Origin: Isurus oxyrinchus
Lineage: Eukaryota
Direction: 5' to 3'
DNA: 64,000 bases
Assembly (NCBI GenBank): GCA_026770705.1
Contig: JANJGN010000052.1
Coordinates: forward strand, 2,170,001 to 2,234,000
Both the position numbers and the translations under genes were made by a program. This document shows positions 15,901 through 55,954 of this stretch, one piece after another. Within the stretch, counting starts at the first letter, position 1; every line of letters begins with the position of its first letter. The notes below the pieces were generated by a model, which worked only from the letters and a program-made list of their open reading frames with translations, searched no databases and had not been told where the DNA came from.

Positions 15901-18900
15901 CTCATCATCCTCATGACCCCCCTCCTCATCCCCTCCTAATCCCCCTCCTCATCCCCTCCTCATCCCCCTCCTCATCCTCATCCCCTCCTCATCCCCACCT
16001 CATCCCCTCCTCATCCTCCTCCTCATCTCCCTCCTCATCACCTCTTCATCCCCCTCCTCATCCCCCTCCTCATCCCCTTCTCATCCCCTCCTCATCCCCC
16101 TCCCTATCCCACTCCTCATCCCCCTCCTCATCTCCCTCCACATCCCCTCCTCATCCCCCTCCTTATCCCCTCCTCATTCTCCTCCTCATCTCCCTCCTCA
16201 TCCCCCTCCTCATCCCCTCCTCCTCTCCCTCCTCATCTCCCTCCTCATCCCCTCCTCATCCCCTCATCATCCCCTCCTCATCACCCTCCTCATCCCCTCC
16301 TCATCCTCCTCCTCATCTCCCTCCTCATCCCCCTCCTCATCCCCTCCTCATCCCCTCCTCATCTCCCTCCTCATCCCCCTCCTCATCCCCTCCTCATCCT
16401 CCTCCTCATCTCCCTCCTCATCCCCCCAACTCCCTCCTCATCCCCCTCCTCATCCCCTTCTCATCCCCTCCTCATCCCCCTCCCTATCCCACTCCTCATC
16501 CCCCTCCTCATCTCCCTCCACATCCCCTCCTCATCCCCCTCCTTATCCCCTCCTCATTCTCCTCCTCATCTCCCTCCTCATCCCCCTCCTCATCCCCTCC
16601 TCCTCTCCCTCCTCATCTCCCTCCTCATCCCCTCCTCATCCCCTCATCATCCCCTCCTCATCCCCCTCCTCATCCCCTCCTCATCCTCCTCCTCATCTCC
16701 CTCCTCATCCCCCTCCTCATCCCCTCCTCATCCCCTCCTCATCTCCCTCCTCATCCCCCTCCTCATCCCCTCCTCATCCTCCTCCTCATCTCCCTCCTCA
16801 TCCCCCCAACTCCCTCCTCATCCCCCTCCTCATCCCCTTCTCATCCCCTCCTCATCCCCCTCCCTATCCCACTCCTCATCCTCCTCCTCATCTCCCTCCT
16901 CATCCCCCTCCTCATCCCCTCCTCATCCTCCTCCTCATCACCCTCCTCATCCCCCTCCTCATCCCCCTCCTCATCCCCCTCCTCATCCCCTTCCTCATCC
17001 CCTCCCCCTCCTCATCCCCCTCCTCATCCCCTTCCTCATCCCCTCACCCTCCTCCTCCCCTCCTCATCCCCCTCCTCATCCCCGTACTCATCTCCCTCCC
17101 TATCTCCCTCCTCATCCCCCTCTTCATCCCCCTGCTCATTTCTTCCTCATCTCCCTCCTTATCCCCTCCTCATCCCCCTCTTCATCGTCCTCCTCACTCC
17201 GCTCCTCATCCCCCTCCTCATCTCCCTCCTCATCCCCCACCTCATCCCCTCCTCATTCCCTCCTCATCCCCCTCCTCATCATCCTCCTGACCCCCCTCCT
17301 CATCCCCTCCTAATCCCCCTCCTCATCCCCTCCTCATCCCCCTCCTCATCCTCATCCCCTCCTCATCCCCACCTCATCCCCTCCTCATCCTCCTCCTCAT
17401 CCCCCTCCTCATCCCCCTCCTCATCCACTTCTCATCCCCTCCTCATCCTCCTCCTCATCTCCCTCCTCATCCTCCTCCTCATCTCCCTCCTCATCCCCCT
17501 CCTCATCCCCTCCTCATCCACTTCTCATCCCCTCCTCATCCTCCTCCTCATCTCCCTCCTCATCCTCCTCCTCATCTCCCTCCTCATCCCCCTCCTCATC
17601 CCCTCATCATCCCCTCCTCATTCCCCTCCTCATCCACTCCTCATCCTCCTCCTCATCTCCCTCCTCATCCCCTCCTCATCCTCCACCTCATCTCCCTCCT
17701 CATCCCCCTCCTCGTCCCCTCCTCATCCTCCTCCTCATCTCCCTCCTCATCCCCGCCTCATCCCCCTCCTCATTCCCCTCCTCATCCCCCTCCACCTCCC
17801 CCTCCCCCTCCTCGTCCCCTCCTCATCTCGCTCCTCATCCCCCTCCTCATTCCCCTCCTCATCCTCCTCTTCATCCCCTCATCATCCCCTCTGCTTCCCC
17901 CTCCTCATCTACCTCCTCATCTCCCTCCTCTTCCCACTCCTCATCCCCCTCCTCATTCCCCTCCTCATCCTCCTCCTCATCCCACCCATCTACCTCCTCA
18001 TCTCCCTCCTCTTCCTCCTCCTCTTCCCCCTCCTCATCCCCCTCCTCATCCCCCTCCTCATGCTCATCCCCTCCTCATCCCCCTCCTCTTCCCCTCCTCA
18101 TCCCCCTCCTCATCCCCCTCCTCATCGCCCTCCTCATCCCGTCCTCAACTCGCTCCTCATCCCCCTCCTCATCCCCTCCTCATCCTCCTCCTCATCTCCC
18201 TCCTCATCCCCTCAACTCCCTCCTCATCTCCCTCCACATCCCCTCATCATCCCCTCCTCATCCCCCTCCTCATCCCCCCCTCATCCTCCTCCTCATCTCC
18301 CTCCTCATCCCCCTCCTCATCCCCTCCACATCCCCTCCTCATCTCCCTCCTTATCCCCCTCCTCATCCCCCTCCTCATCTCCCTCCTCATCACCTCTTCA
18401 TCCCCCTCCTCATCGCCCTCCTCTTCCCCTCGTCATCCCCTCTTCATCCCCCTCCTCATCCCCTCCTCATCCTCCTCCTCATCTCCCTCCTCATCCCCCT
18501 CCTCTTCCCCTCCTCATCCTCCTCCTCATCTCCCTCCTCATCCCCCTCCTCATCCCCTCCTCATCTCCCTCCTCACCTCCCTCCTCATCCCCCTCCTCAT
18601 CCCCCCCTCATCGCCCTCCTCATCCCATCCTCAACTCGCTCCTCATCCCCCTCCTCATCCCCTCCTCATCCTCCTCCTCATCTCCCTCCTCATCCCCTCA
18701 ACTCCCTCCTCATCCCCCTCCTCATCCCCTTCTCATCCCCTCCTCATCCCCCTCCCTATCCCACTCCTCATCCCCCTCCTCATCTCCCTCCTCATCCCCT
18801 CCTCATCCCCCTCCTTATCCCCTCCTCATCCTCCTCCTCATCTCCCTCCTCATCCCCCTCCTCATCCCCTCCTCATGCTCCTCCTCATCTCCTTCCTCAT

Positions 18901-19425
18901 CCCCCTCTTCATCCCCCGCTCATCCCCTCCTCCTCTCCCTCCTCATCTCCCTCCTCATCCCCTCCTCATCCCCTCATCATCCCCTCCTCATCCCCCTCCT
19001 CATCCCCCCTCATCCTCCTCCTCATCTCCCTCCTCATCCCCCTCCTCATCCCCTCCTCATCCCCTCCTCATCTCCCTCCTCATCCCCCTCCTCATCCCCT
19101 CCTCATCCTCCTCCTTATCTCCCTCCTCATCCCCTCAACTCCCTCCTCATCCCCCTCCTCATCTCCTTCTCATCCCCTCTTCATCCCCCTCCCTATCCCA
19201 CTCCTCATCCTCCTCCTCATCTCCCTCCTCATCCCCCTCCTCATCCCCCCTCATCCTCCTCCTCATCACCCTCCTCATCCCTCTCCTCATCCCATCCTCA
19301 TCCTCCTCCTCCTCTCCCTCCTCATCCCCCTCCTCATCTCCCTCCTCATCCCCCTCCTCATCCCCTCCTCATCTCCCTCCTCATCCCCCTCCTCATCCCC
19401 CTCCTCATCCCTTTCCTCATCCCCC
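9966..19425. repeat. ~9.5-kb pyrimidine-rich CCTCATC(C)n array with internal block duplications
   Basis: Continuous CCTCCTCATCCCC/CCTCATCTCC units; rare marker variants such as GACCCCCCTCCTCATCCCCTCCTAAT recur at ~10005, ~15915 and ~17290. Confidence 0.95.
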
Positions 19426-19656
19426 TTTGTGTGAAGAAGTGCTTCCTGACATCACCCCCTGAACGGCCTGGCTCCAATTTTAAGGTTCTGCCCCCTTGTT
19501 CTGGAACCCCCCTCACCTCACCCCCACCCCCACCCCCACCCCCACCCCCACCCTCACCCTCACCCCCACCCCCACACCCACCCTCACCCCCACCCCCACT
19601 CTCACCCCCACCCCCACCCTCACCCCCACCCCCACCCCCACCCTCACCCCCACCCT
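19422..19656 (-). mobile_element. CR1 fragment with (ACCCCC)n expansion
   Basis: Encodes DVRKHFFTQRG; the same fragment occurs at 27565-27650 and 49130-49400. Confidence 0.75.
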
Positions 19657-21503: not shown

Positions 21504-21752
21504 TCAGTTTTTCTGGAACCTGATCTGTGCGTATTCCGTGTCCTCGCTCCTGTGCACAGTCCTGTCACCGCCGGGCAGCTTTGAAAAGTTGATGTTGGCG
21601 TAGAAAAGCTCGTCGGGTTTGTCGGGGTTCCCATGTCCAACATCGCCTCCCACTGGACCTTCAGAGAGATCCCGGGGAGCTGGGGTCTCCCCCTCGCTAG
21701 TTGTGTTTCTGGTTGTGTTCCGGGGCTCAGTAATCAGCACGTTCTGTTTACC
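21504..21752 (-). CDS. Gene B distal terminal exon with ITIM (LFYANI) and ITIM-like/ITSM (TEYAQI)
   Basis: Acceptor ctctgtag|GGT phase 0, 82 codons plus TGA; typical Siglec twin-tyrosine tail. Confidence 0.85.
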   Translation of the reverse strand, partial: GKQNVLITEPRNTTRNTTSEGETPAPRDLSEGPVGGDVGHGNPDKPDELFYANINFSKLPGGDRTVHRSEDTEYAQIRFQKN

Positions 21753-21869
21753 CTACAGAGAAATGGAAACAGAAGACATCCTCACATCATTTACTGGCAC
21801 TGATAGGGTTAAATTATTGTGCAGACTTGTTTAATTCTCTCTCTCCTGTCGGATAAAAGGCACCATCTA

Positions 21870-22055
21870 TGGCAGTGCAGCACTCCCTCAGTACTGACCC
21901 TCCAACAGTGCAGAACTCCCTCAGTGCTGACCCTCCGACAATACAGCGCTCCCTCAGTACTGACCCTCTGTCAGTGCAGCACTCCCTCAGTACTGACCCT
22001 CCGACAGTGCAGCACTCCTTCAGTACTGACCCGCTGTCAGTCCCGCACTCCCTCG
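21870..22055. repeat. 33-bp minisatellite (CAGTACTGACCCTCCGACAGTGCAGCACTCCCT)
   Basis: Tandem units; the family recurs across the window. Confidence 0.9.
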
Positions 22056-22509
22056 GTAATGGCTCTGGTGAGTGACGGCTTGGATTCTGCACTCAGGTGC
22101 CTGGTGTGAGGCTCAATAACATGAACCTTGTAATCAGAGAGAGGATGAGAGAGAGAGATAGAGGAGGGATAGAGACAGAGTGTTATTAATCTATTAATGT
22201 TTGTATTGTAATTGCAAACTGTCTTTTTAAACAGAGGTTTAGTCTGTGTGTGTGCCTGTGTGTATTTAAATTGGATTAAAGACAGCCAGTCTGTGTGCTT
22301 TGATGTATAGTAGTTTTGAGATGTCAACAAAGAGGTAAAGTGGTAATTTGCATTTTTAAATAAAACATTCAAAGTCTGAGAGTGAAATCTTAAACCAATC
22401 AACGTTTATATTACTAATAAAATTGATACGATGAAAGGGGATTTATTATTGGAAGAGATGGAGTTCAAAGGTCCTGATGATACATTGCGAATTTACCTTC
22501 AAACAGAAG

Positions 22510-22680
22510 CCATAAGACCATAAGACATAGGAGGAGAAATTAGACCATTCGGTCCATCGAGTCTGCTCCACCATTCATACATGGCTGATATGTTTCACAA
22601 ACCCAATTCTCCAACCTTCTCTCCTAACCATTGATCCCCTTACCAATCAAGAGCGTATCAATCTCCGTCTTCTTTACACT
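22510..22680 (-). mobile_element. CR1 LINE 3' end
   Basis: CATAAGACCATAAGACATAGGAG short-repeat tail followed by GACCATTCGGTCCATCGAGTCTGCTCC. Confidence 0.7.
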
Positions 22681-22684
22681 CAAG

Positions 22685-23114
22685 AGCTGGGTATAACTTG
22701 AGCAGTTTTGTGTGTGCAGAGCAGACGCTTGTAACAGCAAAGCAGCTGTAAGCCTACACCTGTCTGCAAAGGAACCAAAGTGAAAGGAACCTCATTTGGA
22801 ATTTGTGAGGTGAAAATGCTTTGCCTGGGTGTCTGCTTAAAGATAATGGGTTGTCTTAGAGGAGATTAGTTTGAGAATTTGTTATAAAGTTATGATAATA
22901 CTAGTTTGTAGCCATGTGCATATGTTTAACTTGTGAAAATTAATAAATGTCTCATTTAGATTGATATAAAATCATCTTGAGAACTGGTGGTCTTATTCCT
23001 GAATTTAGAGCTGCATCTCAAACATTTCACTGGGAAATATAGGTTACGACAGCTGTTTAAAGTTTCCCTCTGGGATTTTAAACAACAGCCTTTACCAGTT
23101 GCTGTGTATTAACA
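22685..23114 (+). mobile_element. LTR 3' fragment (partial copy at 25608-25917; related to 60080-60700)
   Basis: AATAAA and ..TAACA end; shared TTTCCCTCTGGGATTT..CAGCCTTTACC block. Confidence 0.55.
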
Positions 23115-23249
23115 GAGAGACAGCATGATACTGAACCATTGCTGACTCCACAGGTACAAATCAGTGGGTAACTGGGCTGGGAATCTGGGACATATGTTGT
23201 CTACACACTGAAATTGAAGCTTTGGAGTGAGTGTAAACAGCTCCTGTAC

Positions 23250-23331
23250 CTGGTGTTTCACAGAGAGTGGACTGGGGGTCAATGCAATGTCACTGGTCCC
23301 TGAAACTCTCTCCTCCATCGCTGTCTTTCTC
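23250..23331 (-). CDS. Gene B juxtamembrane cytoplasmic exon, distal copy
   Basis: ttattgcag|G..CAG|GTACAG, 82 nt, phase 2 to 0, RKTAMEERVSGTSDIALTPSPLSVKHQ. Confidence 0.8.
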
Positions 23332-24486: not shown

Positions 24487-24735
24487 TCAGTTATGCTCAA
24501 ACCTGATCTGTGCGTATTCCGTCTCCTCTTCCCTGTGGACAGACCCATCACCACTGGGCACCCTCAAAACTTGGGGATTGGCGTAGAGAAACTCTTCAGG
24601 TTTGCCGGGGTTCCCATGTCCAACATCGCCTCCCACTGGACCTTCAGAGAGACCCCGGGGAGCTGGGGTCTCCCCCTCGCCAGTTGTGTCTCTGGTTGTG
24701 TTCCGGGGCTCAGTAATCAGCACGTTCTGTTTACC
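24487..24735 (-). CDS. Gene B proximal terminal exon with disrupted ITIM (FLYANP) and intact TEYAQI
   Basis: Same acceptor and 249-nt length as the distal copy; open frame to TGA. Confidence 0.85.
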   Translation of the reverse strand, partial: GKQNVLITEPRNTTRDTTGEGETPAPRGLSEGPVGGDVGHGNPGKPEEFLYANPQVLRVPSGDGSVHREEETEYAQIRFEHN

Positions 24736-26857: not shown

Positions 26858-26954
26858 TTTCTCACACAGATGAAGATGAAGATTCCAGCCAGGAAAACAC
26901 TCAACATGATCCCAGCCGTGAACAATCCTACTGTCCATTTACTGGAGTCTCTAC
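26858..26954 (-). CDS. Gene B transmembrane exon GRDSSKWTVGLFTAGIMLSVFLAGIFIFICVRK
   Basis: tttttacag|GT..AA|GTAAGT, 97 nt, phase 1 to 2; uncharged hydrophobic helix with basic stop-transfer. Confidence 0.9.
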
Positions 26955-27826: not shown

Positions 27827-28120
27827 CTTTGACCCACAGATACACCTTGAACATGGCTTCCCCATGTGGGTTTTGAACCGAGCAGGATGCAATCACTCCC
27901 CCCTCATCCTGGGGTCTCATCAGGGTGAGGGAACCAGTCACCAGATGCCCATCTCTGACCTGCCACGACACAAAACCTCCGTGTGTTTGGTTACCACTGA
28001 TGTTGGCACTGGGCAGGTGCCAGGTGAGGTCTCCGGGTGGGTTGGAGGTGGCCACACAGACGCAGGTGACCCCCTCTGACCTCCGAGTGCACTCCGACTG
28101 CTGGGAAATCTCCGGCTTAT
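27827..28120 (-). CDS. Gene B membrane-proximal Ig exon (MAG domain-5-like)
   Basis: 294 nt, phase 1-1; YKPEISQQSECTRRSEGVTCVCVATSNPP..SCSVQNPHG has the extra-Cys CxC pattern of MAG-type last domains. Confidence 0.9.
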
Positions 28121-29187: not shown

Positions 29188-29463
29188 ATTGTACGTTCAG
29201 GTGGGTGATGTTGGAGGTGCTGTTACCCACCGGGTTCCTCGCTGTGCAGTAGAAACCTGCATCATTCTCCCGTGTTACAGGAGTGAAGGAGAGAGTGCGG
29301 CTACTTGTGTTTAACTGGGTGCTGGTGTTCCCCTCGATCCTGAACCAGGTGTAATGAGATATCGGTGGGACACTTTCACTGGAGCAGGTTAATGTGATAT
29401 TGCTTCCCTCTCTTATCCCACCTGAGGATCTGCTGATGGACACCATCGTCTCCTGTGGGGGAT
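29188..29463 (-). CDS. Gene B C2-set Ig exon (CD22/sialoadhesin-like)
   Basis: 276 nt, phase 1-1; PPQETMVSIS..EGSNITLTCSSESVPPISHYTWF..DAGFYCTARNPVG. Confidence 0.9.
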
Positions 29464-31322: not shown

Positions 31323-31339
31323 TGTATCTCCACACTCAC

Positions 31340-31406
31340 ATTCCACAGTGATGGTTATGAACCCCTCCACTGCTCCATGTTCATTCTCTGCCACACACTG
31401 ATAGTC
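31340..31406 (-). pseudogene. Gene B truncated C2-set exon remnant (DYQCVAENEHGAVEGFITITVE)
   Basis: Matches the last 67 nt of the intact exon at 53148-53429; donor GTGAGT kept, 5' ~215 nt missing. Confidence 0.85.
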
Positions 31407-31603: not shown

Positions 31604-31900
31604 CTTGCACAGTTAGTACGAGGGTCCGCTCCGATGAAACAGATGGATATCTCACTCTGCAGCTGAGAGTGTGTCCGTGGTGTTTGAGTGATGGGATCAG
31701 GGTCAGAACAGAAGTATAGGTCAGAGTGACACCATGCTGAGTTACAGTGTTTGAGACTGATCCAGGCACATCAGTGGGAGTGTCCCAGGTTAAGACAGGT
31801 GCTGCTGTTCCATTGCACGTTGTGTTGAAGGTGCAGCTTACATCCACACGCTTTCCTGCAATAATTTCCGCAGGGAATATCGTGGGTTTATCTGTGAAAT
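31604..31900 (-). CDS. Gene B first C2-set exon (Siglec domain-2 type)
   Basis: 297 nt, phase 1-1; DFTDKPTIFP..VSCTFNTTC..PVLTW..PSLKHHGHTLSCRVRYP with the interdomain Cys. Confidence 0.9.
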
Positions 31901-32713: not shown

Positions 32714-33082
32714 CAGAAACGTAAAGCTGGGTTACAGGGTAATAGTTATGGCTCGGACCATTGTCAAATTCTATCTTGAAAAAATAAGGTCCTGCATCTT
32801 CCCATCTGATGTTGTTTATAATCAGGGAACAGTCGCCATCTTTCAGGTCTCCAGACAGCAGGGTCCGATGGCGGAACCGTGGTAACTCGTGACTGTGATC
32901 CTTGGAGTGAAAGGCAATGGGAGCCCAGGGAATCTGTTTCTCATTATTAAACCAGACTCCACCTCGCGGTTGGTTTTCCAGACACGATGGATAACTGTAA
33001 TGACATGGAATCTGTACACACGAACCTTCCTGCGCTGTCACCTCTCGTGGAATGTCACCTTTCCACTCTTGTGAGGGTTCAT
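32714..33082 (-). CDS. Gene B second V-set exon (V2; essential Arg replaced by Lys)
   Basis: 369 nt, phase 1-1; QEGSCVQIPC..GDLKDGDCSLIINNI..DAGPYFFKIE. Confidence 0.9.
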
Positions 33083-33159
33083 CTGGGGAGAGAAATCTCA
33101 ATATTTAACTCTGGATGGTTTGTGGATCCACTGAAACCGATATTTACAGATGAGGCTGA

Positions 33160-33975
33160 ATTGGGGGGATGGTCAATACTGAGGAGAATGGCAACAAATT
33201 ATTTTGGCAGGAAGAATAGAAAAACAGGATATTATTTAAATGGAGACAGGCTGCAGAATGCAGTACAGAGGGATCTGGGTGTCCTTGTACATGAATCACA
33301 GAAAGTCAGCATTCAGGAACACCACGGAATGAGGAAGGCAAGTGGAATGTTGGCCTTTATTGCAAAGGGATGGAGTATAAAAGGAGGGAAGACTTGCAAC
33401 AGCTGCACAGGGTAAGATTGTATCAGGAGCAGTGTGTACAGTTCTGGTCTCCTTACTTAGGGAGGGATAGACTCTGCATTGAACGCAGTCCAGAGGAGGT
33501 TCACTGGGCTGATTCCTGGGATTAAAGGGTTTGTCCTGTGAGGAAATGTTGAGCAGGTTGGGCCTGTATCCATTGGAGTTTAGAAGAATGAGTGGTGACC
33601 TTATTGAAACATATCCGATTCCGAGGGGGCTTGACATGGTGGATGCTGGGAGGATGTTTCCCCCTCGTGGGGGAATCTAGAACCAGGGAGCACAGTTTCG
33701 GAATGAGGGCTCTCCCATTTAAGACTGAGATGAGGAGGAATTTCCTCTCTCAGAGGGGCGCTAGCCTGTGGAATTCTCTTCCCCAGAGAGCAGTGGAGGC
33801 TGGGCCATTGAATAGACTCAAGGCTGAGTGAGGCAGGTTTTTGATCGACAAGGGAGTCAAGGGTTTGTGTCAGGCAGGAAAATGGAGTTAAGGCCACAAC
33901 CAGATCAGTGAGAGCAGGCTCAAGGGGCCGAATGGCCTGCTCCTGTCCCTATTTCTTATGTTCCTACATTCTTAC
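33160..33975 (+). mobile_element. CR1 LINE 3' fragment
   Basis: FGRKNRKTGYYLNG..QRDLGVLVH..MRRNFLSQRGASLWNSLPQRAVEA and 3' tail. Confidence 0.9.
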
Positions 33976-34519
33976 CTTCTTAAAATATTAAAGCTGCAGA
34001 ATAAACATGAAGTGAATGACCCGCTCGACCCACCTTCCATCTGGGGGTCCCATGGGGAGGACCCTTCCTGAGCCAGATCCACCAGCCAACATGGTCTGGA
34101 TCCGAGCACAGGAGACACGGGGGGGGAGTGACTAACAGGCTCCTTGTGACAGACCCCGTCTGTCCAATGGCTGGCTTTCAGCTGCCAAGGCCAGAGTGGT
34201 CCTTGCTAAAACCAGCTCAGGACAGGCCAGGACCCCTGTGCAGACCCCCTCCAGCGCTGCAGCCTCTGTACAAACCCCTCATGCGCTTGTGGAGAGACAC
34301 AAACAAGGCTGCACATTACCGAGGAGAATCCCTTCTACGGACTAAGGGGCTGACTCATCACCTTAAACTCAGCAAATGAGGAGGCTCTCGCTCGGTATCG
34401 GGTCTTGGCATTCGCTCAATAAAAATAATCAAATGACATTTTGGTCAGAAATCTAAGGAGGATGTACATTCCGTCAAAAATAAGACTCAAGCTGGGGTCA
34501 AGGGTCAAAGGGCAACAAC

Positions 34520-36100
34520 TTATATTTACACAACAACTTGAACATGACAAATCACCCCAAGTTGCTACACAGGAGCGTCATAAAACAAAGTATGTCACCC
34601 AGACACATGTGGAGATATTAGCGACAGCTGGCCAGAAGAGTTCGGTGTTATGGAGAGACAGAGAGAAAGAGACAAAGAGACAGAGAGAGAGAGATAGAGA
34701 GAGTGAGAGAGAGGGATGGAGAGGGGTTGAGGGAGGGTATTACAGAGCTCGGGCCCCAGGCAGCTGAAGGCATGGACGCTGATGTTGGAGTGATGTGCTC
34801 GGGGGATGGTCAAGAGGCTGGAATTGGAGGAGTGCAGAGACATCAGAGGGTTGGAGGGGCTGGTGGAGGTTACAGAGGTAGGGAAAGTTGTCGGGACTGG
34901 AGCAGGCTACAGAGATAGGGAAGCTTTTAGGGGCAGGAGGAAGTTACAGAAATAGGGAGGGTTGTAGTGGCTGGAGGAGGTTGCAGAGATTGGTAGGTTT
35001 GTTGGGCAGGATGAATTTACAGCTATAGGGAAGTGATAGGAGCTTGAAGAGGTTACAGAGATAGGGATGGTTGTAGACAATTGAAGAGGTTACAGAGATA
35101 GGGAGTGTTGTAGGTACTGTAGGAGGATGAGGAGATTACAGGGATAGTGCGGAAACAAAGATGAAAATTTGGACATTGCGACTTTGCTTGACCAGGAGCC
35201 AGTCTCGGTCATCGAGCAGAGTGGGTGATAAGGGAACGGGACTTGGTGTGAGTAAGGACGTGGTCAGCAGTTTTGGATGGCCTCAAGTTTATGGAGTGTA
35301 GAGCGTGTGTTGGAACAGTCGAGTCTGGAGGTAATGAAGGCGTGGATGAGGGTTTCAGCAGCAGATGAGCTGAGACAGGGTGACGTCGTGCGATGTTACG
35401 CAGGTGGAAATAGACGGTGTTAGTGAGGGTGCAGATATGAGGCCGGAAGCTCATCTCAGGATCAAATGGGACAACAAAGCTGTGAACAGATTGGCTTCAA
35501 TCTCAGAGAGCTGCCAGGGAGTGGAATGGAGTTGGTAGCGAGGGAACAGAGTTTGGAGCGGGGAATGAAGACAATGGCCTCAGTCTTTCCAATATTTAAT
35601 TGGAGGGAATTTCTGCCCATCCAGTACTGGATGTCGGATAAGCAGCCTGATAATTTAGCAGCAGTGGAGGAGTCGAGAGAGGTGGTGGTGAGGTAGAGCT
35701 GGGGATCCTCAGTGGACAGGTGAAAAGTAACGCTGTTCAGATGATGCTGCAAAGCCATTGCAAGTGATTCTCTGGCTACGATGAGATGGATAAGAATGGA
35801 GCCAGGGGAGAGCAGTCCCACCCAGCTGGACCACAGTGGAGAGGGGTTGGAGGAGGATGGTGTGGTCGAGCGTGTCAAAGGCTGCAGACAGATCGAGAAG
35901 GACGAGGAGGGAAAGTTGACCTTTGTCACAGTCACACAGGATGCCATTTGTGACCTTGATAAGAGCTGTTTCAGCACAGTGGCTGGGGTGGGAACCTGAT
36001 TGGAGGGATTCAAACATGGAGTTCCGGGAAAGATGGGAATGGATTCGGGAAATGGAAACACGTTCAAGGACTTTGGAGGGGAACGAGAGGCTGGAGATGG
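34520..36100 (-). mobile_element. L2 LINE remnant with RT fragment
   Basis: RPISSLSFPSKVLERV..ETALIKVTN..LLVLLDLSAAFDTLDH..LQLNIGKTEAIVF. Confidence 0.9.
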
Positions 36101-36381
36101 GACGGGGGTTTACACGGACAGTGTGAGGGGTGGAAGGTGTAGTGGGGAGGAGACACTTCACTCAGGGGGGAAGTGTCATCATCCCTCAGCTCGGTTTACG
36201 TTACAGCTATGATGTGGATTCAATCACACACAATAAGCTCATGGATCTGGGAGCAGAAATAGACAAATCATTAAAAATAGTGAAGCTGGTTAACACGGCC
36301 AAAAAACAAGCAAATCAAACACTATTATTTCCCATTGAGTGTTGGATGTGAATTGTTGAGTAATTATAACACAGCACTTAC

Positions 36382-36759
36382 CAGAAACGTGAAGCTGGGT
36401 TGCAGGATAGTAGCTGTAACTATTGCTGCTGTCAAATTCTATTCTGAAATAATAATAATGTGCATCTTCCCGTCTGATGTTGTTTATAATCAGGGAACAG
36501 TCGCCATCTTTCAGGTCTCCAGACAGCCGTGTCCTATTGCGGAACCGTGTTAACTCGCGATTGTGATCCTTGGAGTGAAAAGCTATAGTCCCTCTAGACC
36601 TTGTATTCCATGTGTACCATTTCACGTACCAGATTCCGACACGTGCTCTCCCTACTACACGTGCTGGATAACTGTAGTTACATGGAATCTGGACACACGA
36701 ACCTTCCTGCGCTATCACCTGTCGTGGAGTTTCACCTTTCCACTCTTGTGACAGTCCAA
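36382..36759 (-). CDS. Gene B first V-set exon (V1; sialic-acid-binding Arg intact)
   Basis: 378 nt, phase 1-1; VGLSQEW..GSCVQIPC..DCSLII..YYYFRIEFDSSNSYSYYP. Confidence 0.9.
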
Positions 36760-42058: not shown

Positions 42059-42098
42059 CTTGGAGAAGTGACAGGAGGAAGTAGGATTTCCCGATCAT
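42059..42098 (-). CDS. Gene B signal-peptide exon MIGKSYFLLSLLQ with mutated donor (G|ATAATA)
   Basis: Same peptide as the gene C leader; acceptor at 42141; +1 G>A at 42058. Confidence 0.75.
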
Positions 42099-42548
42099 TG
42101 TCCACTCCCAGATATTTCATAAGCTTCTGACTCTCAAACTCTGAAAGAGAAAGGAGTTAATGAGACCTCACCTCTTGTCCGACAGCTCTCAAGAGATCAG
42201 AACTGTTTTTGGACAATGTCTTGACAGACTAATTTGATTCTCTGTGGGATGATAGGTGCTCTGCAGAGAGTTACAAGGCTTTAAGAAAGAAAAACATTAA
42301 AGGATTTGCATTTCTATAGCACCTTTCACCACCTCAAGACGTCCCAAAGCTCATGTCTCTGCACTTCCCTCATCCCTTGAGCTAGAAAGATGTTCTGTAC
42401 AACAGACTTGAGTCTCACACCCAGATCTCAATAACCAGTAGAAATCTTTCAAAGGCATCAATCATTGGAATCTGTCTTAAAAAAGTCACAACATCAACAA
42501 AGGACGGTGTTGGTGGTGGAAGTGAATTCCAATCGTTCCGTTACTTAC

Positions 42549-42690
42549 CCAGGACCTGTCCGACTGCTCGCCTGGGGAGGAACTGCCCACACGCTCTGCT
42601 TGGGCTGAATGACCTCTTCCCGTGCTGCTCCCTCTGTGTATTTAATTAGAAAGGGTGGATGTGTCACTGTGAGACAAAATGAGGAAGTGG
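42549..42690 (-). promoter_or_regulatory. Gene B putative promoter and non-coding exon 1
   Basis: Donor GG|GTAAGT at 42548, TTAAATA TATA-like at ~42640, PU.1-like AAAATGAGGAAGTG at 42676-42689; conserved with 59911-60050. Confidence 0.55.
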
Positions 42691-44640: not shown

Positions 44641-46474
44641 GTGTGGTCTGCACTGTCCTAAGTGCATTCTAGGCACTGCCCAAGGTTCCGCCTGATGTCT
44701 GTGTAACAAGAACATCATGTACACGTCGAGAATATTTCTCACTGTGTCGGTGCAGCAAGACAGCTTTGGAATGGCACCACCACTGACAGGAGTGTGAAAC
44801 TACAATGTGACATGTTTACATGGGAAATTTCTATTATAAAGATGGGCACACGAATTCATATGATAGAGAAAATGTGACAACATGAAGTAATGTCTTTGAG
44901 CCAAAAATTTGGCTTCAAACTAAGAATTTTAATCTATAAATATCTATAGAAAAGGCTGAGCATTTTAATCACTTGAGTAAATCAATGTAATTTTATTCAT
45001 AAGCCAAATGCTTCTTACAATCTATCGCAGCATGAAAAAGGTGCAGCATTCAGAAAGCACATTCCAATCAGAGAACAGAGTTTAGCAACGTCACATTTCT
45101 GTTCATTCCTATTCGACCATGTTGGCTGCACACAGCCAGACAATGCCGTGGTTATGATGTGTCCACACAGCAGGACTGGGGAGCACCAGGTATAAGGAAA
45201 AGTTTCAGCTTGCTGAGGAGAAGAAGGAGAATCTCTCGTTCCAGGTTTCTCTCCGTACATTAAGAAGCAGGCATGCCGATGTTTCATTGCACTCTGTCTG
45301 CTGATGGGAGTCCGCTTGGAAATTGCTGTTTGTGCTGATGGAAAGAATAAGCTTTTCATAAATCGAGGGATTGAGAACAAACACAGGGAGGATATGCTGA
45401 ACATTTATAAAGCTCTGGTTAGGTCACAACTAAACTAATGCATGTGTCTGATTTTGGACATGGAACCCAATTCTGTCCTCAGGACATTGACAGATGGAGA
45501 GACCAGATACAGATCAATGCAGGAGGATTATTTATTTTCCCAATCTTTGATCCAAGCATCTCATCAAACACAGAGCGGAACCAGGATCAAGGATGTTGGT
45601 CTCTGTAATCTGTAACACATCGCACAGTCCACCCATCCACTCAGCCTTCAGAATGGATGCTAATTGTACTCTCCAAGTGTGAAAGACTAAAATGATGGTT
45701 TATTGCAGCTGTATCTCATTCTGTTATCAAAGCTGTCTCATCCATCCATGACATATTGAAGAAGATAAACCTGCAACCAATTTTTCACATCATAATTTCC
45801 AATTGTTCATTGGCTATATCAATGTAAACATGTCACATTGTACTGATGAACTCCCATCATTGCTGGCACTGTAGCACATGTTATCCTCTAAGCTGCAGAG
45901 AATTTCTCAAATCTCGAATCAAATTGTTTCCCTGTTTCCCAGATTGTTGTTCGTTTCGCTGTTTAACGATGAAGTGTTAAATCCAAATATATTTCTGAAA
46001 ATACATTTGACTACAAAATGGTGAGTAAATTTTGCCAATCTCCTCTGCTCCAATTATCCACCGATGCTGCATTTCCTGAAGTCTACACTGGCTGATGAAT
46101 ATTCTAAACACTGACAGACAGCAAGGTGAATAACAGAATGAAAATTAACTCATAATCACGGACACGGGATTGAATTTGTCCGTTCTGTCCTGGTACATCA
46201 TCGAACGATATCTAAAGACATTTACAATCAGAATGGAGAGAAGGATGTTTCCAACAGTGAGGGACAATTCTGAAGGAGGATGTTCGAATTGAAACCCACA
46301 GACAATCATCCTGGATAGATCATTCCAAAGAAATTCCATCAGATTGTAACAAGAGGTTTAAATCTATTTCCTGGGAGTGAGTTCCTGTGGATATTAGGAA
46401 GGTAAATTGGAGTTTTGAATGATTCTCCCGTTCTGTATTCTCCCCACACTGTGTGTGTCTCATTCTTGCTCAGT

Positions 46475-46591
46475 TTATAAATTCCCATAAACAGAATCCT
46501 CAGCAAATTCACAGTTTGCGTAAAGATCATCATCTGTATCAGGATTGACTCCGCGGTTAGATTTCATTTCCAGAACCTTCTCATCTTTCTT
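46475..46591 (-). CDS. Gene C terminal exon KKDEKVLEMKSNRGVNPDTDDDLYANCEFAEDSVYGNL*
   Basis: Strong acceptor tttctgtttctattacag, 117 nt in phase 0, acidic tyrosine motifs; not in the supplied ORF track in this frame. Confidence 0.7.
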   Translation of the reverse strand, partial: KKDEKVLEMKSNRGVNPDTDDDLYANCEFAEDSVYGNL

Positions 46592-46686
46592 CTGTAATAG
46601 AAACAGAAATGATCAGAGTGACAATCAGAGTGATCAGTGTTTAGTATTATTGATCCAAATCAAAAATTCCACCCACAATAGATACA

Positions 46687-48822
46687 TTAATTATTGATAC
46701 TGAACAGGGTTTGATTATTGATTCTGAACGGGGTTTGATTATTGATTCTGAACGGGGTTTGATTATTGATACTGAACAGGGTTTGATTATTGATACTGAA
46801 TGCGGTTTGATTATTGATTCTGAACAGTGTTTGATTATTGATACTGAACGGGGTTTGATTATTGATTCTGAACGGGGTTTGATTATTGATACTGAACGGG
46901 GTTTGATTATTGATTCTGAACGGGGTTTGATTATTGATTCTGAACGAGGTTTGAATATTGACACTGAATGGGGTTTGATTATTGATCCTGAACAGGGTTT
47001 GATTATTGATCCTGAAAGGGGTTTGATTATTGATACTGAACAGTGTTTGATTATTGATACTGAACAGGGTTTGATTATTGATCCTGAACAGGGTTTGATT
47101 ATTGATCCTGAAAGGGGTTTGATTATTGATACTGAATAGTGTTTGATTATTGATACTGAACAGGGTTTGATTATTGATTCTGAACAGTGTTTGATTATTG
47201 ATACTGAACGGGGTTTGATTATTGATTCTGAACAGGGTTTGATTATTGATTCTGAATGGGGTTTGATTATTGATACTGAACGGGGTTTGATTATGGATTC
47301 TGAATGGGGTTTGATTATTGATTCTGAACGGGGTTTGATTATTGATCCTGAATGGGGTTTGATTATTGATTCTGAACGGGGTTTGATTATTGATACTGAA
47401 CGGGGTGTGATTATTGATACTGAACGGGGTTTGATTATTGATACTGAACGGGGTTTGATTATTGATTCTGAAAGGGGTTTGATTATTGATTCTGAAAGGG
47501 GTTTGATTATGGATTCTGAACGGGGTTTGATTATTGATCTTGAACGGGGTTTGATTATGGATTCTGAAAGGGGTTTGATTATGGATTCTGAACGGTGTTT
47601 GATTATTGATCCTGAACGGGGTTTGATTATGGATTCTGAAAGGGGTTTGATTATGGATTCTGAATGGGGTTTGATTATTGATTCTGAACGGGGTTTGATT
47701 ATTGATTCTGAAAGGGGTTTGATTATTGATTCTGAACGGGGTTTGATTATTGATACTGAACGGGGTTTGATTATTGATTCTGAACGGCGTTTGATTATTG
47801 ATACTGAACGGGGTTTGATTATTGATTCTGAACGGCGTTTGATTATTGATACTGAACGGGGTTTGATTATTGATTCTGAACGGCGTTTGATTATTGATAC
47901 TGAACGGGGTTTGATTATTGACATTGAATGGGGTTTGATTATTGATTCTAAACGGTGTTTGATTATTGATTCTAAACGTTGTTTGATTATTGAACCTGAA
48001 TGGAGTTTGATTATTGATTCTGAACTGGGGTTGATTATTGATACTGAACGGGGTTTGATTATTGATTCTGAACGGCGTTTGATTATTGATACTGAATGGG
48101 GTTTGATTATTGATTCTGAACGGCGTTTGATTATTGATACTGAACAGTGTTTCATTATTGATACTGAACGGGGTTTGATTATTGATTCTAAACGATGTTT
48201 GATTATTGAACCTGAACGGAGTTTGATTATTAATTCTGAACAGTGTTTGATTATTGATTCTGAAAGGGGGTTGATTTTTGATACTGAATGGGGTTTGATT
48301 ATTAATTCTGAATGGGGTTTGATTATTGATACTGAATGATGTTTGATCATTGATTCTGAACGGGGTTTGATTATTGATTCTGAACGGGGTTTGAGTATTG
48401 ATACTGAACGGGGTTTGATTATTGATACTGAACGGAATTTGATTATTGATACTGAATGGTGTTTGATTAATGATACTGAACGGGGTTTGATTATTGATTC
48501 TGAACGGGGTTTGATTATTGATACTGAACAGGGTTTGATTATTGATACTGAACGGGGTTTGATTATTGATTCTGAATGGGGTTTGATTATTGATTCTGAA
48601 TGGGGTTTGATTATTGATACTGAACGGGGTTTGATTATTGATTCTGAACGGGGTTTGATTATTGATACTGAACGGGGTGTGATTATTGATTATGAACGGG
48701 GTTTGATTATTGTTACTGAACGGGGTTTGATTATTGATACTGAACGGGGTTTGATTATTGATTCTGAACGGGGTTTGATTATTGATACTGAACGGGATTT
48801 GATTATTGATTCTGAACGGTGT
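46687..48822. repeat. 24-bp tandem array (TTGATTATTGATWCTGAACGGGGT), ~89 copies, intronic
   Basis: Direct reading; length divided by 24. Confidence 0.95.
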
Positions 48823-48952
48823 TGGGTGTGAGTTTGGTTGGGTTTGGGAGTGACTGTATAAAAAATTGCAGATACAGGACTGGAGCAGCCATATCAATAA
48901 CCAGGCTACTGGAGCAGCTGAGAGGCTGGGGATCCTGTGGTGTGTGACTCAC

Positions 48953-49057
48953 CTGATTCCTCAAAGCCCAACCACGCTCACAGTTTTCATAAACAGGACC
49001 TCGATATTCATCAACACGGTGGCTCGATTTGATTCCTGCTTTCCCCTCGCCTCTCTT
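48953..49057 (-). CDS. Gene C cytoplasmic exon KRGEGKAGIKSSHRVDEYRGPVYENCERGWALRNQ
   Basis: ctctattacag|AAG..CAG|GTGAGT, 105 nt, phase 0-0; paralogous to the terminal exon including its acceptor. Confidence 0.6.
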
Positions 49058-49402
49058 CTGTAATAGAGATGGAAATGGACAAAGTGACAATCAACATGAT
49101 GTGTATTCGGTGTTGGGTTTGATTATTGGGGAGAGAGTTCCAGATTTCCACTCCCCTTTGTGTGAAGAAGTGCTTCCTGACATCACCCCTGAACGGCCTG
49201 GCTCCAATCTGAAGTTCCAGCCCCCTTGTTCTGGACTCCACCCGACCCCCACCACCCACCCCCACCCGAGGGAATAGCTTCTCTCTATCGACCCTATCGA
49301 GTGTTTAATCAGTTTGAACCCCTCAATTAGATCACTCCTTAATCTTCTAGACCCGAGGGAATATAATCGTAGACTATGTGTAACCTGTCTGCATAATTTA
49401 AC

Positions 49403-49705
49403 CAGAAAGATGTTCTGTACAACAAACCTGAGCCTCACACCCAGATCTCAATAATCAGTAGAAATCTTTCAAAGGCATCAATCATTGCAATCTGTCTTTA
49501 TAAAGTCACAACATCAACAAAGGACGGTGTTGGTGGTGGAAGTGAATTCCAATCGTTCCGTTACTTACCCGTACCTTTCCGACTGCTCGCCTGGGGAGGA
49601 ACTGCCCACACGCTCTGCTTGGGCTGAATGACCTCTTCCTGTGCTGCTTCCTCTGTGTATTTAATGAGAAAGGGTGGATGTGTCTCTGTGAGTCAAATCA
49701 GGAAT
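49403..49705 (-). other. Third copy of the promoter/exon-1 block, inside gene C
   Basis: Near-identical to 42385-42690 and 59745-60050; donor kept, GAGGAAGT changed to CAGGAATT. Confidence 0.85.
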
Positions 49706-50407
49706 TGGGGAACAATTGTGAAAACCGTTTCACTGAAACGTAGGCCTTAGTGTTGTGTTGTAAGCAAACTGTTAACCCTTTGTGTCCTGACTCTGTGACG
49801 TGATTCCTGTGTAAAGCTGAGCAGTTGGTGAGCGACTTTCAATTCACTGCTCAGTCCAGATGTTGAGGTGGATCTTCTGAAGGAGCAGATGTTGCTCAGC
49901 GCTCCTTAAAAATGTGAGATACTGAACATTGTGTAAGAGGATGAGAGAGAGAATGAGAAGGAGAGCATTAGTGGAGATTGGAGACAGAGTGAATGAGAGA
50001 GAGAATGAGATGTAGAGCATTAGTGGAGATAAGAGAGAGAGTGAATGAGGGAGAAAATGAGAAGGAGAGCATTAGTGGAGATAAGAGAGAGTGAATGAAA
50101 CATGGAAAAAGGAAAGAGATTGCATTCACTAACAAAAGAAAGGTTTTCATTTATATAGCACCTTTCACATCCTCAGGAGGTCACAAGGTATCTTATGGTC
50201 CAGGTCAACACTGCCTGTTACAGGACTGAGTTGTGAAACAGTGAAAGGTGGATGAGATGTTAAACAGTAGGTGAACATCAAAACTCTTCAGGGGTTGTGA
50301 AGGGTTTTGGATTGTAAAAGGTGCTTTTGAAATGCAAGTTCTTTCTATAAGGAGAGAAGTTTGAAGAAAAAATGTTTGAAATCAACCAATTAAACCTTCG
50401 CACTTAC

Positions 50408-50504
50408 TTTCTCACACACTTGAAGATGAAGAATCCACTCAGTCCAACACTCAAACAGATTCCAGCTCCAAGCAATCCTGCTTTCCATTCATTGGAATCT
50501 CGCC
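50408..50504 (-). CDS. Gene C transmembrane exon RRDSNEWKAGLLGAGICLSVGLSGFFIFKCVRK
   Basis: ttttacag|GG..AA|GTAAGT, 97 nt, same phases as the gene B TM exon. Confidence 0.85.
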
Positions 50505-50744
50505 CTGTAAAATCAGCCAATGAATGACTCCGGTACAGTTTGAGAATGGTTCCCTATGTACATGTAGTAATTCTGAACTTGTGAAGTGATATTGTCTATG
50601 CATGAAAGGTCTATACAAATAACATTTATCTATGTAATATTTATTGATAATATCCATGTACATGCAGGTTTCTATAAGGAGGATTCACATATAACAGAGG
50701 TGCCAAGCTGCTGAGGTGACACACAGGAATACATACACACCAAA

Positions 50745-51745
50745 CAGCGGAAACAACATGCTATAGACAGAGCAAAGCGATCCCACAACCAACGGGTCAG
50801 ATCTAAGCTCTGCAGTCCTGCCACATCCAGTCATGAATGGTGATGGACAATTAAAGATCTAACAGGAGGAGGATGTTCCACAAATATCCCCATCCTTAAC
50901 GATGGGGGAGCTCAGCACATCAGTGCAAACGACAAGGCTGAAGCATTGGCAACCATGTTCAGCCAGAAGTGCTGCGTGGATGCTCCATCTCGGCCTCCTC
51001 CAGAGGGTCCCAGCATCACAGATGTCAGCTTTCAGACAATTCAATTGACTCCACGTGACATCAGGAATCAGCTGATGATACTGGATACAGCAAAGGCTAT
51101 TGGCCCTGGCAACAACCCGGCAACAGGAAATAATGTGGCTACAAGAGCGGGTAAGAGGCTGGGAACTCTGCGGTGAGTAATTCAACTCCTGACCCCCCAA
51201 AGCCTGTCCACCATCGGACAAGGCACAAGTCAGGAGTGTGATGGAATAATCTCCAATTGCCTGAATAAGTGCAGCTCCAACAACACTCAAGAAGCTCGAC
51301 ACCATCCAGGAGCAGCTTGTTTGATCGACAGCCCATCCACCAGCATAAACATTCATACCCTCCACCACTGGCACACAATGGCCGCAGTGTGCACCATCTA
51401 CAAAATGTGCTGCAGCAACTCACCAAGGCTCCTTCGACAGCACCTTCCAAACCCTTAACCTCTTCCACCAAGACAGTTCCAAGTCAGTGTGGTGTGTGAC
51501 TTGGAGGCGAACTTGTGGTGTTGGTCTTCCATGAGATTTGGAAATATATCGGCCGTACCTTCACCGTCGATTGGACAAAATCATAGAACTCCCTCCCTAA
51601 CAGCACAGTGGGTGTACCTACACCACATGGACTGCAGTAGTTAAAGAAGGCAGCTCACCACCACCTTCTCAAGGGGCAGTTACAGATGGGCAATAATTTC
51701 TGGCCTTGTCAACAATGCCCATATCCCATGAGCTAATAAAAACAG
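50745..51745 (+). mobile_element. Internally deleted CR1-group LINE
   Basis: MFSQKC..LDTAKAIGP; 3' tail AAGGCAGCTCACCACCACCTTCTCAAGGG..AATAAA. Confidence 0.8.
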
Positions 51746-51769
51746 AATGTTCAATTCTGTGTAACTCAC

Positions 51770-52051
51770 GTTCCACAGTGATGGTTATGAATCCCTCCAC
51801 TGCTCCATGTTCATTCTCTGCCACACACTGATAGTCTCCAGTGTCCCTGGATGTAACGTGAGGAATCACCAACCACAGCTCATTGTTGGAACTTGTTCTG
51901 TTCATTGGGACATTAAGATGTCGCCACGTCAGGTTAGAAGCTGGGAAGCTCTCGACAGAGCAGATTATCACTGCAGAATTCCCCTCAATTATATTGATCG
52001 ATAAAGCGTTAATCACACCAAGAGAAGTAATTGATAGGTTCCGTGGTGCAT
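51770..52051 (-). CDS. Gene C C2-set exon (third C2)
   Basis: 282 nt, phase 1-1; APRNLSI..EGNSAVIICSVESFPASNLTW..DTGDYQCVAENEHG. Confidence 0.9.
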
Positions 52052-52962
52052 CTAAATACAAATAAAGGTTTCATTGTGAGCAAACACAGTGCACAGCAAG
52101 ACTCCATGATACATCTCCCTCTATTTGGTGCCTATGTGCATTTCAAGGTTTCTGTCCTGTTTTAAGTTCCTATGTCAACTTTTATAATGGTCACTGCCGG
52201 CGTTTTTCTTTTTGTACATTCATGGGAAGTGGATGTATCTATCTAGACCAGCATTTATTACCCATCCCTAATTGCCCTTGAGGAGGTGGTGGTGAGTTTT
52301 TCACCCCCACAGAATTCCCAGCCTCTGACCGGCTCCTGTAGCCACAGTATTTATGGCCGGTCCAGTTAGTTGTTTGGGTAACATCCCCCAGGATGTTGAT
52401 TGTGGGGGATTCAGTGATGGGAAAGTGATTGAATATCAAGGGGAGATGGTTAGATTCTCTCTTGTTGGAGATGATCACTGCCTGGTGCTTGTGTGGTGTG
52501 AACATTACTTGTCATTTCTCAGTCCAAGCTGAGTGTTGTTCAGCTCTTGCTGCGTGTGGATATGTAAACTGTCACGCTGTAATTACAGCCTTCCACCAGA
52601 GGAGACACTGTCGGGCTAGGAGAAAAGAAAATGTCTTTCACATCATCAGGATGTTCACAGGGATTTGACAGCGGAGGAATTGCTTTAGAATAATGGGGTA
52701 TTGAGTGATAAACCTACAATTCTCTGTGCAGGGGGCTGCTCGTCCAATACAGGGTCTTGTTCAGCTGATGTCGTCAGTGTTTCAGAGCAGAATCTGGAGC
52801 AACACTCCAGTGCAGCACAGGGAGAACAGACAACTCACACATGTCTGTGTGTGTGTGAGCAAGCACACGTGTGATTCTGTGTATGTTTCCTTCTGTGTGT
52901 GTGCATGCAGGTGTACACACCTGTGCACATGTGGGATTCAACATGAATGCTTGTTTGTGTGC

Positions 52963-53132
52963 NNNNNNNNNNNNNNNNNNNNNNNNNNNNNNNNNNNNNN
53001 NNNNNNNNNNNNNNNNNNNNNNNNNNNNNNNNNNNNNNNNNNNNNNNNNNNNNNNNNNNNNNNNNNNNNNNNNNNNNNNNNNNNNNNNNNNNNNNNNNNN
53101 NNNNNNNNNNNNNNNNNNNNNNNNNNNNNNNN
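52963..53132. other. Assembly gap (170 N)
   Basis: Run of N. Confidence 1.
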
Positions 53133-53147
53133 TTTGCAGTAACTCAC

Positions 53148-53429
53148 ATTCCACAGTGATGGTTATGAACCCCTCCACTGCTCCATGTTCATTCTCTGCC
53201 ACACACTGATAGTCTCCAGTGTCCCTGGATGCAACGTGAGGAATCACCAACCACAGCTCATTGTTGGAACTTGTTCTGTTCATTGGGACATTAAGATGTC
53301 GCCACGTCAGGTTAGAAGCTGGGAAGCTCTCGACAGAGCAGATTATCACTGCAGAATTCCCCTCAATTATATTGATCGATGAAGCATTAATCATATCAAG
53401 AGAAGTAATTGAGAGATTCTGTGGTCCAT
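53148..53429 (-). CDS. Gene C C2-set exon (second C2)
   Basis: 282 nt, phase 1-1; GPQNLSI.. otherwise near-identical to 51770-52051. Confidence 0.9.
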
Positions 53430-53557
53430 CTAAAAACAAATAAACATCAATTAAGTTACACTGACTGTGAAGCACTTTGAAAGACACTGAGAATGTGAAA
53501 GGTTTGATATCAATATAGGTTCTTTCACCACAAAGCCCATAATCCAGCCAGACACCT

Positions 53558-54152: not shown

Positions 54153-54273
54153 GGCGGATTTGTATCAGTTAAAGACTATTGATTTGTTGCTAAACACAAT
54201 GCAGTTGTGGGATCTTGCAGTGTACTATGTAGAGCATTCTAGCTAATGTAGATGGAAGGGTGTCTGTTCTTAC

Positions 54274-55588: not shown

Positions 55589-55954
55589 CAGAAATGTGAA
55601 GCCGGGTTACAGGGTAATAGTTATAGCGCGGACCATTGTCAAATTCTATTCTGAAAAAATAAGGTCCTGCATCTTCCCGTCTGATGTTGTTTATAATCAG
55701 GGAACAGTTGCCATCTTTCAGGTCTCCAGACAGCCGGGTCCGATGGCGGAACCGTGGTAACTCGTGACGGTGATCCTTGGAGTGAAAGGCTATGGACAAT
55801 CTTCTCCGTTCCTCATTATTAAACCAGACTCCACCTCGTGGTTGGCTGTCCAAATGTGCTGGATAACTGTAATGACATGGAATCTGTACACACGAACCTT
55901 CCTGCGCTGTCACCTCTCGTGGAGTATCACCTTTCCACTCTTGTGACAGTCCAA
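55589..55954 (-). CDS. Gene C V-set exon (Arg intact)
   Basis: 366 nt, phase 1-1; VGLSQEW..GSCVQIPC..DAGPYFFRIEFDNGPRYNYYP. Confidence 0.9.

Follow-up and report, generated by a model that had tools for sequence, protein, structure and literature searches.

A B-C-loop cysteine that likely links tandem V domains in a Siglec-like family of sharks and rays, as seen from a probably broken gene copy in Isurus oxyrinchus

What becomes of the inter-domain Cys of a Siglec when its V-set domain is followed not by a C2-set domain but by another V? This question is raised by a gene, here called gene B, which lies on the minus strand of contig JANJGN010000052.1 of Isurus oxyrinchus, within positions 2,170,001 to 2,234,000; this whole stretch of 64,000 nt is referred to as the window, and the coordinates below are counted from its first letter. 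Gene B has two Siglec-type V exons in tandem, the inner of which (V2) carries one Cys more than the outer (V1), and the initial annotation proposed that V2 had turned into a non-binding stalk and had newly gained this Cys to hold V1. The answer considered probable here is a different one: gene B would be one, probably broken, copy of a tandem-V Siglec-like family of sharks and rays in which a Cys of the inner V domains links to the preceding V, the inner V domains being more likely sialic-acid sites than stalks. The features on which the argument turns are the following.

36382..36759, minus strand: V1, outer Siglec-type V exon of 378 nt, with a long aromatic/basic C-C' loop and its Arg codon at 36445-36443
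36695..36697, minus strand: A'-B Cys of V1 (GSC), the inter-domain Cys of Siglecs, aligning with GLC of CD33 and Siglec-5
32714..33082, minus strand: V2, inner V exon of 369 nt, starting with DEPS
32982..32984, minus strand: extra Cys of V2 in the B-C loop, seven residues after the B-strand Cys (hence B+7), likely partner of the V1 A'-B Cys
32775..32777, minus strand: Lys of V2 at the site of the essential Arg, as placed by alignment to Siglec-5
31604..31900, minus strand: first C2-set exon, with a B-C-loop Cys (SCTFNTTC, 31817-31815) that is the likely partner of the V2 A'-B Cys
55589..55954, minus strand: single V exon of gene C, with His at B+7 and the Arg kept; the leader of gene C (59478) keeps its GT donor

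When considered from its layout, gene B follows the Siglec family, with Siglec-type V-set domains, then C2-set domains, a membrane helix and a tail. Read on the minus strand, V1 and V2 are both open, in phase 1 and bounded by AG and GT, and both score above the cut-off for Pfam V-set and Ig_CD22, with C2-set_2 also matched in the gene. V1 has YFRIE, SYSYY and three Cys; V2 has FFKIE, SHNYY, a (D)EPS start and four Cys, all as first described, and the extra Cys is indeed absent from V1 and from the V of gene C. Alignment with CD33 reveals the Siglec pattern of an A'-B Cys together with B- and E-strand Cys, no F-strand Cys, and a B-C-loop Cys in the first C2. The V domains find their best solved-structure matches in Siglec-5, -7, -8, -10, MAG and CD33, at about 30% identity, and the closest named proteins belong to lamniform sharks and are 90-94% identical. 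Two separate genes with a hidden leader between V1 and V2 were rejected as an explanation, because no leader-like exon was found there, and so was a false duplication, since V1 and V2 are only 79% identical and the layout occurs in 8 of 8 relatives compared.

The extra Cys is by no means peculiar to gene B. Two protein searches of the shark's own genome yielded 1034 and 1064 candidates for V exons, 150 of which were scored in each case, and 1.56 Mb were mapped, comprising 1.064 Mb of contig C52 around the window (74 V matches, 71 full length) and 0.5 Mb of contig C71 (28 matches, 26 full length). Residue counts refer to full-length V exons, with fragments left out, and thus to 97 exons, 42 inner and 55 outer or single. 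The A'-B Cys is present in 97/97, while the B+7 Cys is found in 42/42 inner exons (33/33 in C52, 9/9 in C71), which are near-identical kin and not 42 independent events, versus 4/55 of the others (3/38 and 1/17, respectively); these four sit in genes with a stop (two), a lost ATG or no membrane exon. In a scan along the exon, the S-C-L codons are those most strongly associated with the inner position (phi 0.82-0.89), against 0.74-0.77 at the first two V codons and at most 0.42 in the 3' half. The same picture emerges from 119 distinct V domains of 90 named shark and ray proteins (45 inner, 74 first), in which the B+7 Cys occurs in 34/45 inner but 1/74 first V domains, the sole first one belonging to a leaderless model that opens with the inner-type AEPS. 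Inner V domains with this Cys come from 11 species, which include lamniform, carcharhiniform and orectolobiform sharks, saw sharks and rays. Judged from these sequences, an extra B-C-loop Cys is the rule for inner V domains of this family and is older than gene B, and the proposal that it was newly gained in this gene has to be given up.

Descent of all such domains from one inner exon does not account for the pattern. In a tree of 87 rows (every V domain of the multi-V proteins plus roughly one third of the single ones; 119 columns, those of the Cys being removed), a single clade for the Cys-bearing V domains was rejected (35 versus 52 rows, approximately unbiased test, p-AU 6e-8), with 8 label changes, at least 4 of them on strong branches; ray, saw-shark and some Mustelus inner V domains group beside their own first V domains. 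Since the Cys-bearing V domains do not form one clade, the Cys must have been gained repeatedly or must survive exchange with outer V exons, although the tree, having few columns and likely gene conversion, does not count its origins. On this sequence evidence, the B+7 Cys is not merely carried along with a whole exon lineage.

A role for such a Cys suggests itself from ordinary Siglecs, in which, as the initial annotation rightly stated, the first Cys of the V bonds to a Cys in the B-C loop of the next domain; a passage on MAG names C37-C165 (PMC5150538), and one on CD22 names C39-C167 (PMC5624926), each linking the A'-B Cys to the B-C loop of the following domain. As every V keeps its A'-B Cys, a V standing before another V would be left with this Cys unpaired, having no C2 partner, and the inner V would therefore supply the partner from its own B-C loop, as C2 does in ordinary Siglecs, from position B+7 instead of the B+6 used in C2. 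We infer that the inner B+7 Cys likely bonds to the A'-B Cys of the preceding V, by which a chain V1-V2-...-Vn-C2 would be linked by disulfides into a stiff rod. The pairing of the V2 and V1 Cys suggested for gene B is thus supported by the counts in both data sets and by a roughly Siglec-like stack of the two domains. The AlphaFold models are of named V-V relatives, not of gene B, namely P0013 (predicted local distance difference test, pLDDT, 68.7) and P0017 (pLDDT 75.0), and the stack was seen in the latter, a basking-shark protein of the form leader-V-V-membrane. The V1-V2 unit of P0017 superimposes on domains 1-2 of Siglec-10, Siglec-5 and CD33 with a root-mean-square deviation (rmsd) of 5.2-6.0 over 197-212 residues, and on Fab pairs with an rmsd of about 14; its inner V matches the V of sialoadhesin with Z 18.7 and rmsd 1.7 over 115 residues. 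The modelled pose hence fits a Siglec-like stack, although stacking gives no Cys-Cys distance; a Foldseek ranking returned antibody fragments throughout and added nothing. As a separate observation, ray inner V domains without the B+7 Cys (P0011 of Mobula and P0015 of Hypanus, V2 and V4) have an extra Cys just past the C-strand Trp (KDEC), in the C-C' region, which is possibly a second way to pair a free A'-B Cys.

Such a link presupposes that V exons are spliced to one another. Contigs bearing on this come from sequencing runs that are only guessed to be RNA, of which X15 and X16 form one sample, mapped at 90% or 95% likeness. At 90%, X15 gives the leader-to-V joint 36759/42059 in two contigs and joins a V end to a V start (36758/36382, depth 169.5), and the V-to-C2 joint 31900/32714 appears in both X15 and X16. 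At 95%, X16 attaches a V 3' end to an AEPS-type inner start, with 13 loose letters, and X19 gives a V-to-C2 end. No V-to-V joint is present among the matches listed for X17, X18 and X19, X17 and X19 having only V-to-C2 and C2 pieces. Because V-to-V joints occur in these RNA-like contigs, strict mutual exclusion of V exons in the family appears unlikely; all exons are in phase 1, so that skipping keeps the frame. The splice from 36382 to 33082 proposed for gene B is accordingly backed at the level of the family, but the 15 matches listed in either mapping (878 and 28 others being unlisted) do not include the joint 33082/36382 itself, and contigs of this kind cannot show absence.

As for the sugar-binding site, in the alignment with Siglec-5, V2 has Lys where the essential Arg stands and His in place of the G-strand Tyr; the A-strand Trp is found in both V1 and V2, and the G-strand site holds Tyr in V1. 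The loss of sugar-binding residues originally ascribed to V2 is correct with regard to this Lys and His, but it was overstated, since Arg-to-Lys is a conservative change, the Trp is still present, and most exons other than inner ones also have His at the G-strand site (34/55, versus 33/42 inner). An Arg-to-Lys change at the Siglec site is expected to weaken binding; a literature search gave nothing on Arg-to-Lys Siglec mutants. In the own genome, the essential Arg is present in 41/42 inner exons, 15/25 outer exons of multi-V genes and 28/30 single V exons, and among the 178 exons genome-wide with the Cys motif, 174 have Arg and 4 have Lys, the latter being gene B and its three near-copies. Outer V exons of multi-V genes without Arg have Thr, Ser or Met, in a few clades of kin; at C52:1950143, 2439166, 2633307, 1871372 and 2100861, an outer V with a long aromatic/basic C-C' loop and Thr or Ser for Arg stands before an inner V that keeps Arg. 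In outer exons, diversity is greatest between the B-C loop and C' (proportion of nonsynonymous differences, pN, 0.31 versus 0.08), and inner exons are under more constraint, the ratio to synonymous differences (pN/pS) being 0.62 in 34 distinct inner versus 0.85 in 41 other exons. The VGLS start, correctly said to be changed in V2, is altered in 28/42 inner versus 0/55 other V exons, one other exon reading VVLS. Inner V domains retain Arg, Trp and His or Tyr, whereas outer ones are more variable and more often without Arg; as far as sequence can tell, it is therefore more probable that the inner domains add sialic-acid sites than that they serve only as stalks. The V2 Lys is of recent date and limited to four near-identical copies; it would at most weaken one putative site.

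Two tandem V domains, each with its A'-B Cys, are otherwise familiar from primate Siglec-12 (human Siglec-XII), as was pointed out from the start, and according to passages of two papers no other Siglec has two V domains (PMC7876704; PMC6288428). Siglec-12 is one gene with two V, whereas the shark family comprises hundreds of genes and up to ten V exons, and ape Siglec-12 V2 is without Arg, whereas shark inner V domains mostly keep it. At B+7, chimpanzee Siglec-12 V2 has Cys in 4 of 5 entries holding V2, at the same site as the shark inner V, while bonobo, gorilla, orangutan, human and macaque have Tyr; since the other primates have Tyr, the chimpanzee Cys is a recent change and not a family rule, a one-base change in one species that may be due to chance. 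A Cys in the C-C' region is also found in Siglec-12 V2 of Old World monkeys, chimpanzee and bonobo. Gene B is not a Siglec-12 orthologue, its V domains being closer to their own paralogues: V2 is 90% and V1 81% identical in DNA to the gene C V, and shark proteins top both protein searches. An origin of the shark tandem V separate from Siglec-12, as first proposed, is thus supported by sequence.

CD33-related Siglecs and MAG share with gene B the V-C2 Cys pattern, the F-strand Arg, tail tyrosine motifs and a fast-changing tandem cluster, but they have a single V and are about 30% identical. The likeness to the CD33-related subfamily is by best match only, MAG scores about as well, and gene B is predicted to work like an inhibitory CD33-related Siglec; teleost genomes are said in one passage, which leaves sharks unmentioned, to be without inhibitory CD33-related Siglecs (PMC7226832). 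From a profile search over 1.84 billion representatives, 140 proteins were examined, and 19 of them are tandem-V Siglec-like models of frogs, turtles, teleosts and mammals (some isoforms, one non-Siglec). These gene models (Xenopus, Pelobates, turtles, Seriola, Scleropages, Lynx and other mammals) have two to three tandem V with the A'-B Cys, like sharks; among the 18 mammalian proteins examined, only chimpanzee Siglec-12 has the B+7 Cys. In Scleropages P0178, the second V, unlike the first, carries an additional Cys at B+4, a candidate compensating Cys. The polymeric Ig receptor and CD300-like proteins likewise have several tandem V, and one shark model is auto-named pIgR-like, but their matches are far weaker (E about 1e-7, over one short stretch) and the shark V domains have the Siglec Cys and Arg pattern.

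Several points weigh against a Cys-linked rod with binding inner V domains. The V-V rmsd of 5-6 is looser than that of a V2-C2 control (3.6-4.9) and is worse on MAG, at about 9; X15 and X16 contigs cover the intron too, and contigs can derive from any paralogue. The B+7 Cys is missing from 11/45 inner V domains of named proteins, some of which may stem from fused gene models, and 4/6 ray inner domains are among those without it; V-V proteins of other vertebrates exist without it, none of the 19 tandem-V models having it. Among named proteins, Lys or Ser at the Arg site is found in 7/45 inner versus 2/74 first V domains and His at the G-strand site in 26/45 versus 11/74, and 5/6 ray inner V domains are without Arg, which favours weaker binding there; retention of Arg in the shark could also stem from gene conversion instead of selection. 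It is here that the stalk proposed at the outset finds its backing, namely a V2 turned non-binding in gene B and newly given a Cys to hold V1: V2 has Lys and His at binding sites, as do three near-copies with intact leaders, Lys or Ser occurs in the inner V of whale shark, epaulette shark and rays, and ape Siglec-12 V2 has no Arg. Nevertheless, this explanation is unlikely, as the Cys is older than gene B and independent of Arg loss (174 Arg versus 4 Lys), and in outer V exons of this genome His prevails and Arg is lost more often than in inner exons. The supposed coupling of the Cys gain with conversion into a stalk fails on the same counts, although a stalk may be the right description for rays and for gene B V2, not as the reason for the Cys.

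Other uses of the Cys deserve the same scrutiny. Given that the B-C loop is surface-exposed in established Ig anatomy, the residue might form bonds between chains, giving dimers or oligomers, and the two extra Cys of chimpanzee Siglec-12 V2 would be odd for pairing within one chain; this is quite unlikely in the shark family, where the Cys is confined to V domains preceded by another V whose A'-B Cys would be unpaired (42/42 versus 4/55), single-V genes could equally make use of a Cys for dimers, and each V-V junction has exactly two free Cys. Very unlikely is a neutral Cys that simply marks a single inner-V lineage spread by tandem duplication, with V exons mostly skipped or used singly. The inner V exons of Isurus are 93-100% alike and the phase is 1 throughout, 20/38 outer or single V exons in C52 sit in damaged or truncated genes (18/38 in genes with a leader, an intact V and a membrane exon), and many V-V proteins elsewhere do without the Cys; yet monophyly was rejected, the association peaks sharply at the Cys codons, the Cys is kept from rays to lamniform sharks, and V-to-V joints occur in the RNA-like contigs. 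The reading of the B+7 Cys as a likely link to the preceding V is therefore retained.

Gene B itself is probably a broken member of its family, as judged from its leader, which is listed here with the remaining features of the gene.

42549..42640, minus strand: non-coding first exon, 5' end approximate, donor GG/GTAAGT
42059..42140, minus strand: leader exon, ATG at 42098, encoding MIGKSYFLLSLLQ; donor at 42058-42057 AT, not GT
31334..31406, minus strand: remnant of a third Ig exon, a 73-nt 3' piece of a C2 exon with no acceptor, presumably skipped
29188..29463, minus strand: Ig exon, absent from the three near-copies of gene B
27827..28120, minus strand: membrane-proximal Ig exon, Pfam-supported
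26858..26954, minus strand: transmembrane exon, helix without charged residue
26053..26134, minus strand: cytoplasmic exon 1
24487..24735, minus strand: last exon, with the tyrosine motifs FLYANP and TEYAQI, which resemble immunoreceptor tyrosine-based inhibitory and switch motifs (ITIM/ITSM)
21504..23331, minus strand: duplicate of the two tail exons, with motifs LFYANI and TEYAQI

The leader boundary reads CCAAG/AT in gene B versus CCAAG/GT in gene C, so that gene B lacks the canonical leader splice donor of a functional gene. It is the only one of 42 leaders in the 1.064 Mb around the window with an AT donor, and exact patterns, which differ slightly from each other, count 5 AT versus 504 GT leader donors genome-wide. 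Because two other AT-donor copies have the flanks of gene B, the AT was probably inherited, a lone assembly error being unlikely. In-frame cryptic GT donors lie in the leader intron at 41968 and 41797, ahead of the first stop, but they would spoil the signal peptide, and the sequence marks this copy as a probable pseudogene. Its three near-copies (C52:149920, C385:342607 and C323:190024; 99.0, 99.1 and 96.2% identical over about 8 kb) all share V1 and the V2 with Lys, their leader donor is intact, and some of them may be alleles. The 73-nt C2 remnant recurs in these near-copies and in other family genes, and copies of the non-coding first exon recur upstream of leaders throughout the cluster. 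In a white-shark model (P0028), both tail-exon copies are spliced in, giving a doubled tail. Gene C (46470-59538) is a single-V gene whose C2 exon is duplicated; its membrane exon is shorter and ends in FIFKCVRK, and its tail differs, having DLYANC and SVYGNL. As in all genes seen with that tail type, the non-coding first exon has a further copy inside the intron 3' of the membrane exon (49404-49722). About 10 kb of low-complexity CCT/CAT-type repeat (9364-19431) are a source of long spurious open frames in the window.

The family to which gene B belongs is large. Humans have about 15 Siglec genes, and the genome of Isurus oxyrinchus has 504 intact leader exons of Siglec-like genes, or about 500 genes, an upper-side figure because some contigs may be alternate haplotypes. 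In the 1.56 Mb mapped, 25 of 59 V-exon runs have at least two V exons, the longest having 7 and 10; these lie at C52:1871372-1887051 and 2280266-2299952, respectively, with V exons 1.5-3.4 kb apart, and one of the ten is frameshifted. Elsewhere, a promoter exon and leader exon are repeated in tandem (3-4 copies) before one V exon (C52:1790037-1794157; C121:1352005-1357860), and a family member at C34:15129535-15143660, on a 19.9-Mb contig, is a possible anchor of the cluster.

Such shark proteins are already auto-named 'Siglec-12-like' in databases. A literature search over listings of non-subscription journals found no shark Siglec expansion and no V-V disulfide, so that an earlier description may exist; in the portions covered, a whale-shark paper mentions Siglecs once (PMC8455134), and the words 'shark' and 'cartilaginous' are absent from a review (PMC13358205). 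What this analysis adds is the counted Cys rule, together with the case against a stalk, the loss of the leader donor and the parallel in chimpanzee.

The gene B copy itself, being probably dead, matters little, whereas some 500 leader exons and V arrays of up to ten alter the view of the age and plasticity of inhibitory Siglec clusters. Tentatively, and with somewhat more doubt than confidence, the family may be pictured as an intrinsically multivalent sialic-acid sensor, that is, several hundred genes encoding disulfide-locked rods of up to ten V, with putatively binding inner V domains and an outer V that could diverge toward other ligands and often lacks Arg, the same Cys having arisen independently in chimpanzee Siglec-12. 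The one-residue staple would be a simple, testable design for tandem Siglec probes and, if it is true that the inner V domains bind, avidity would in these fishes be built into one chain and not achieved via clustering.

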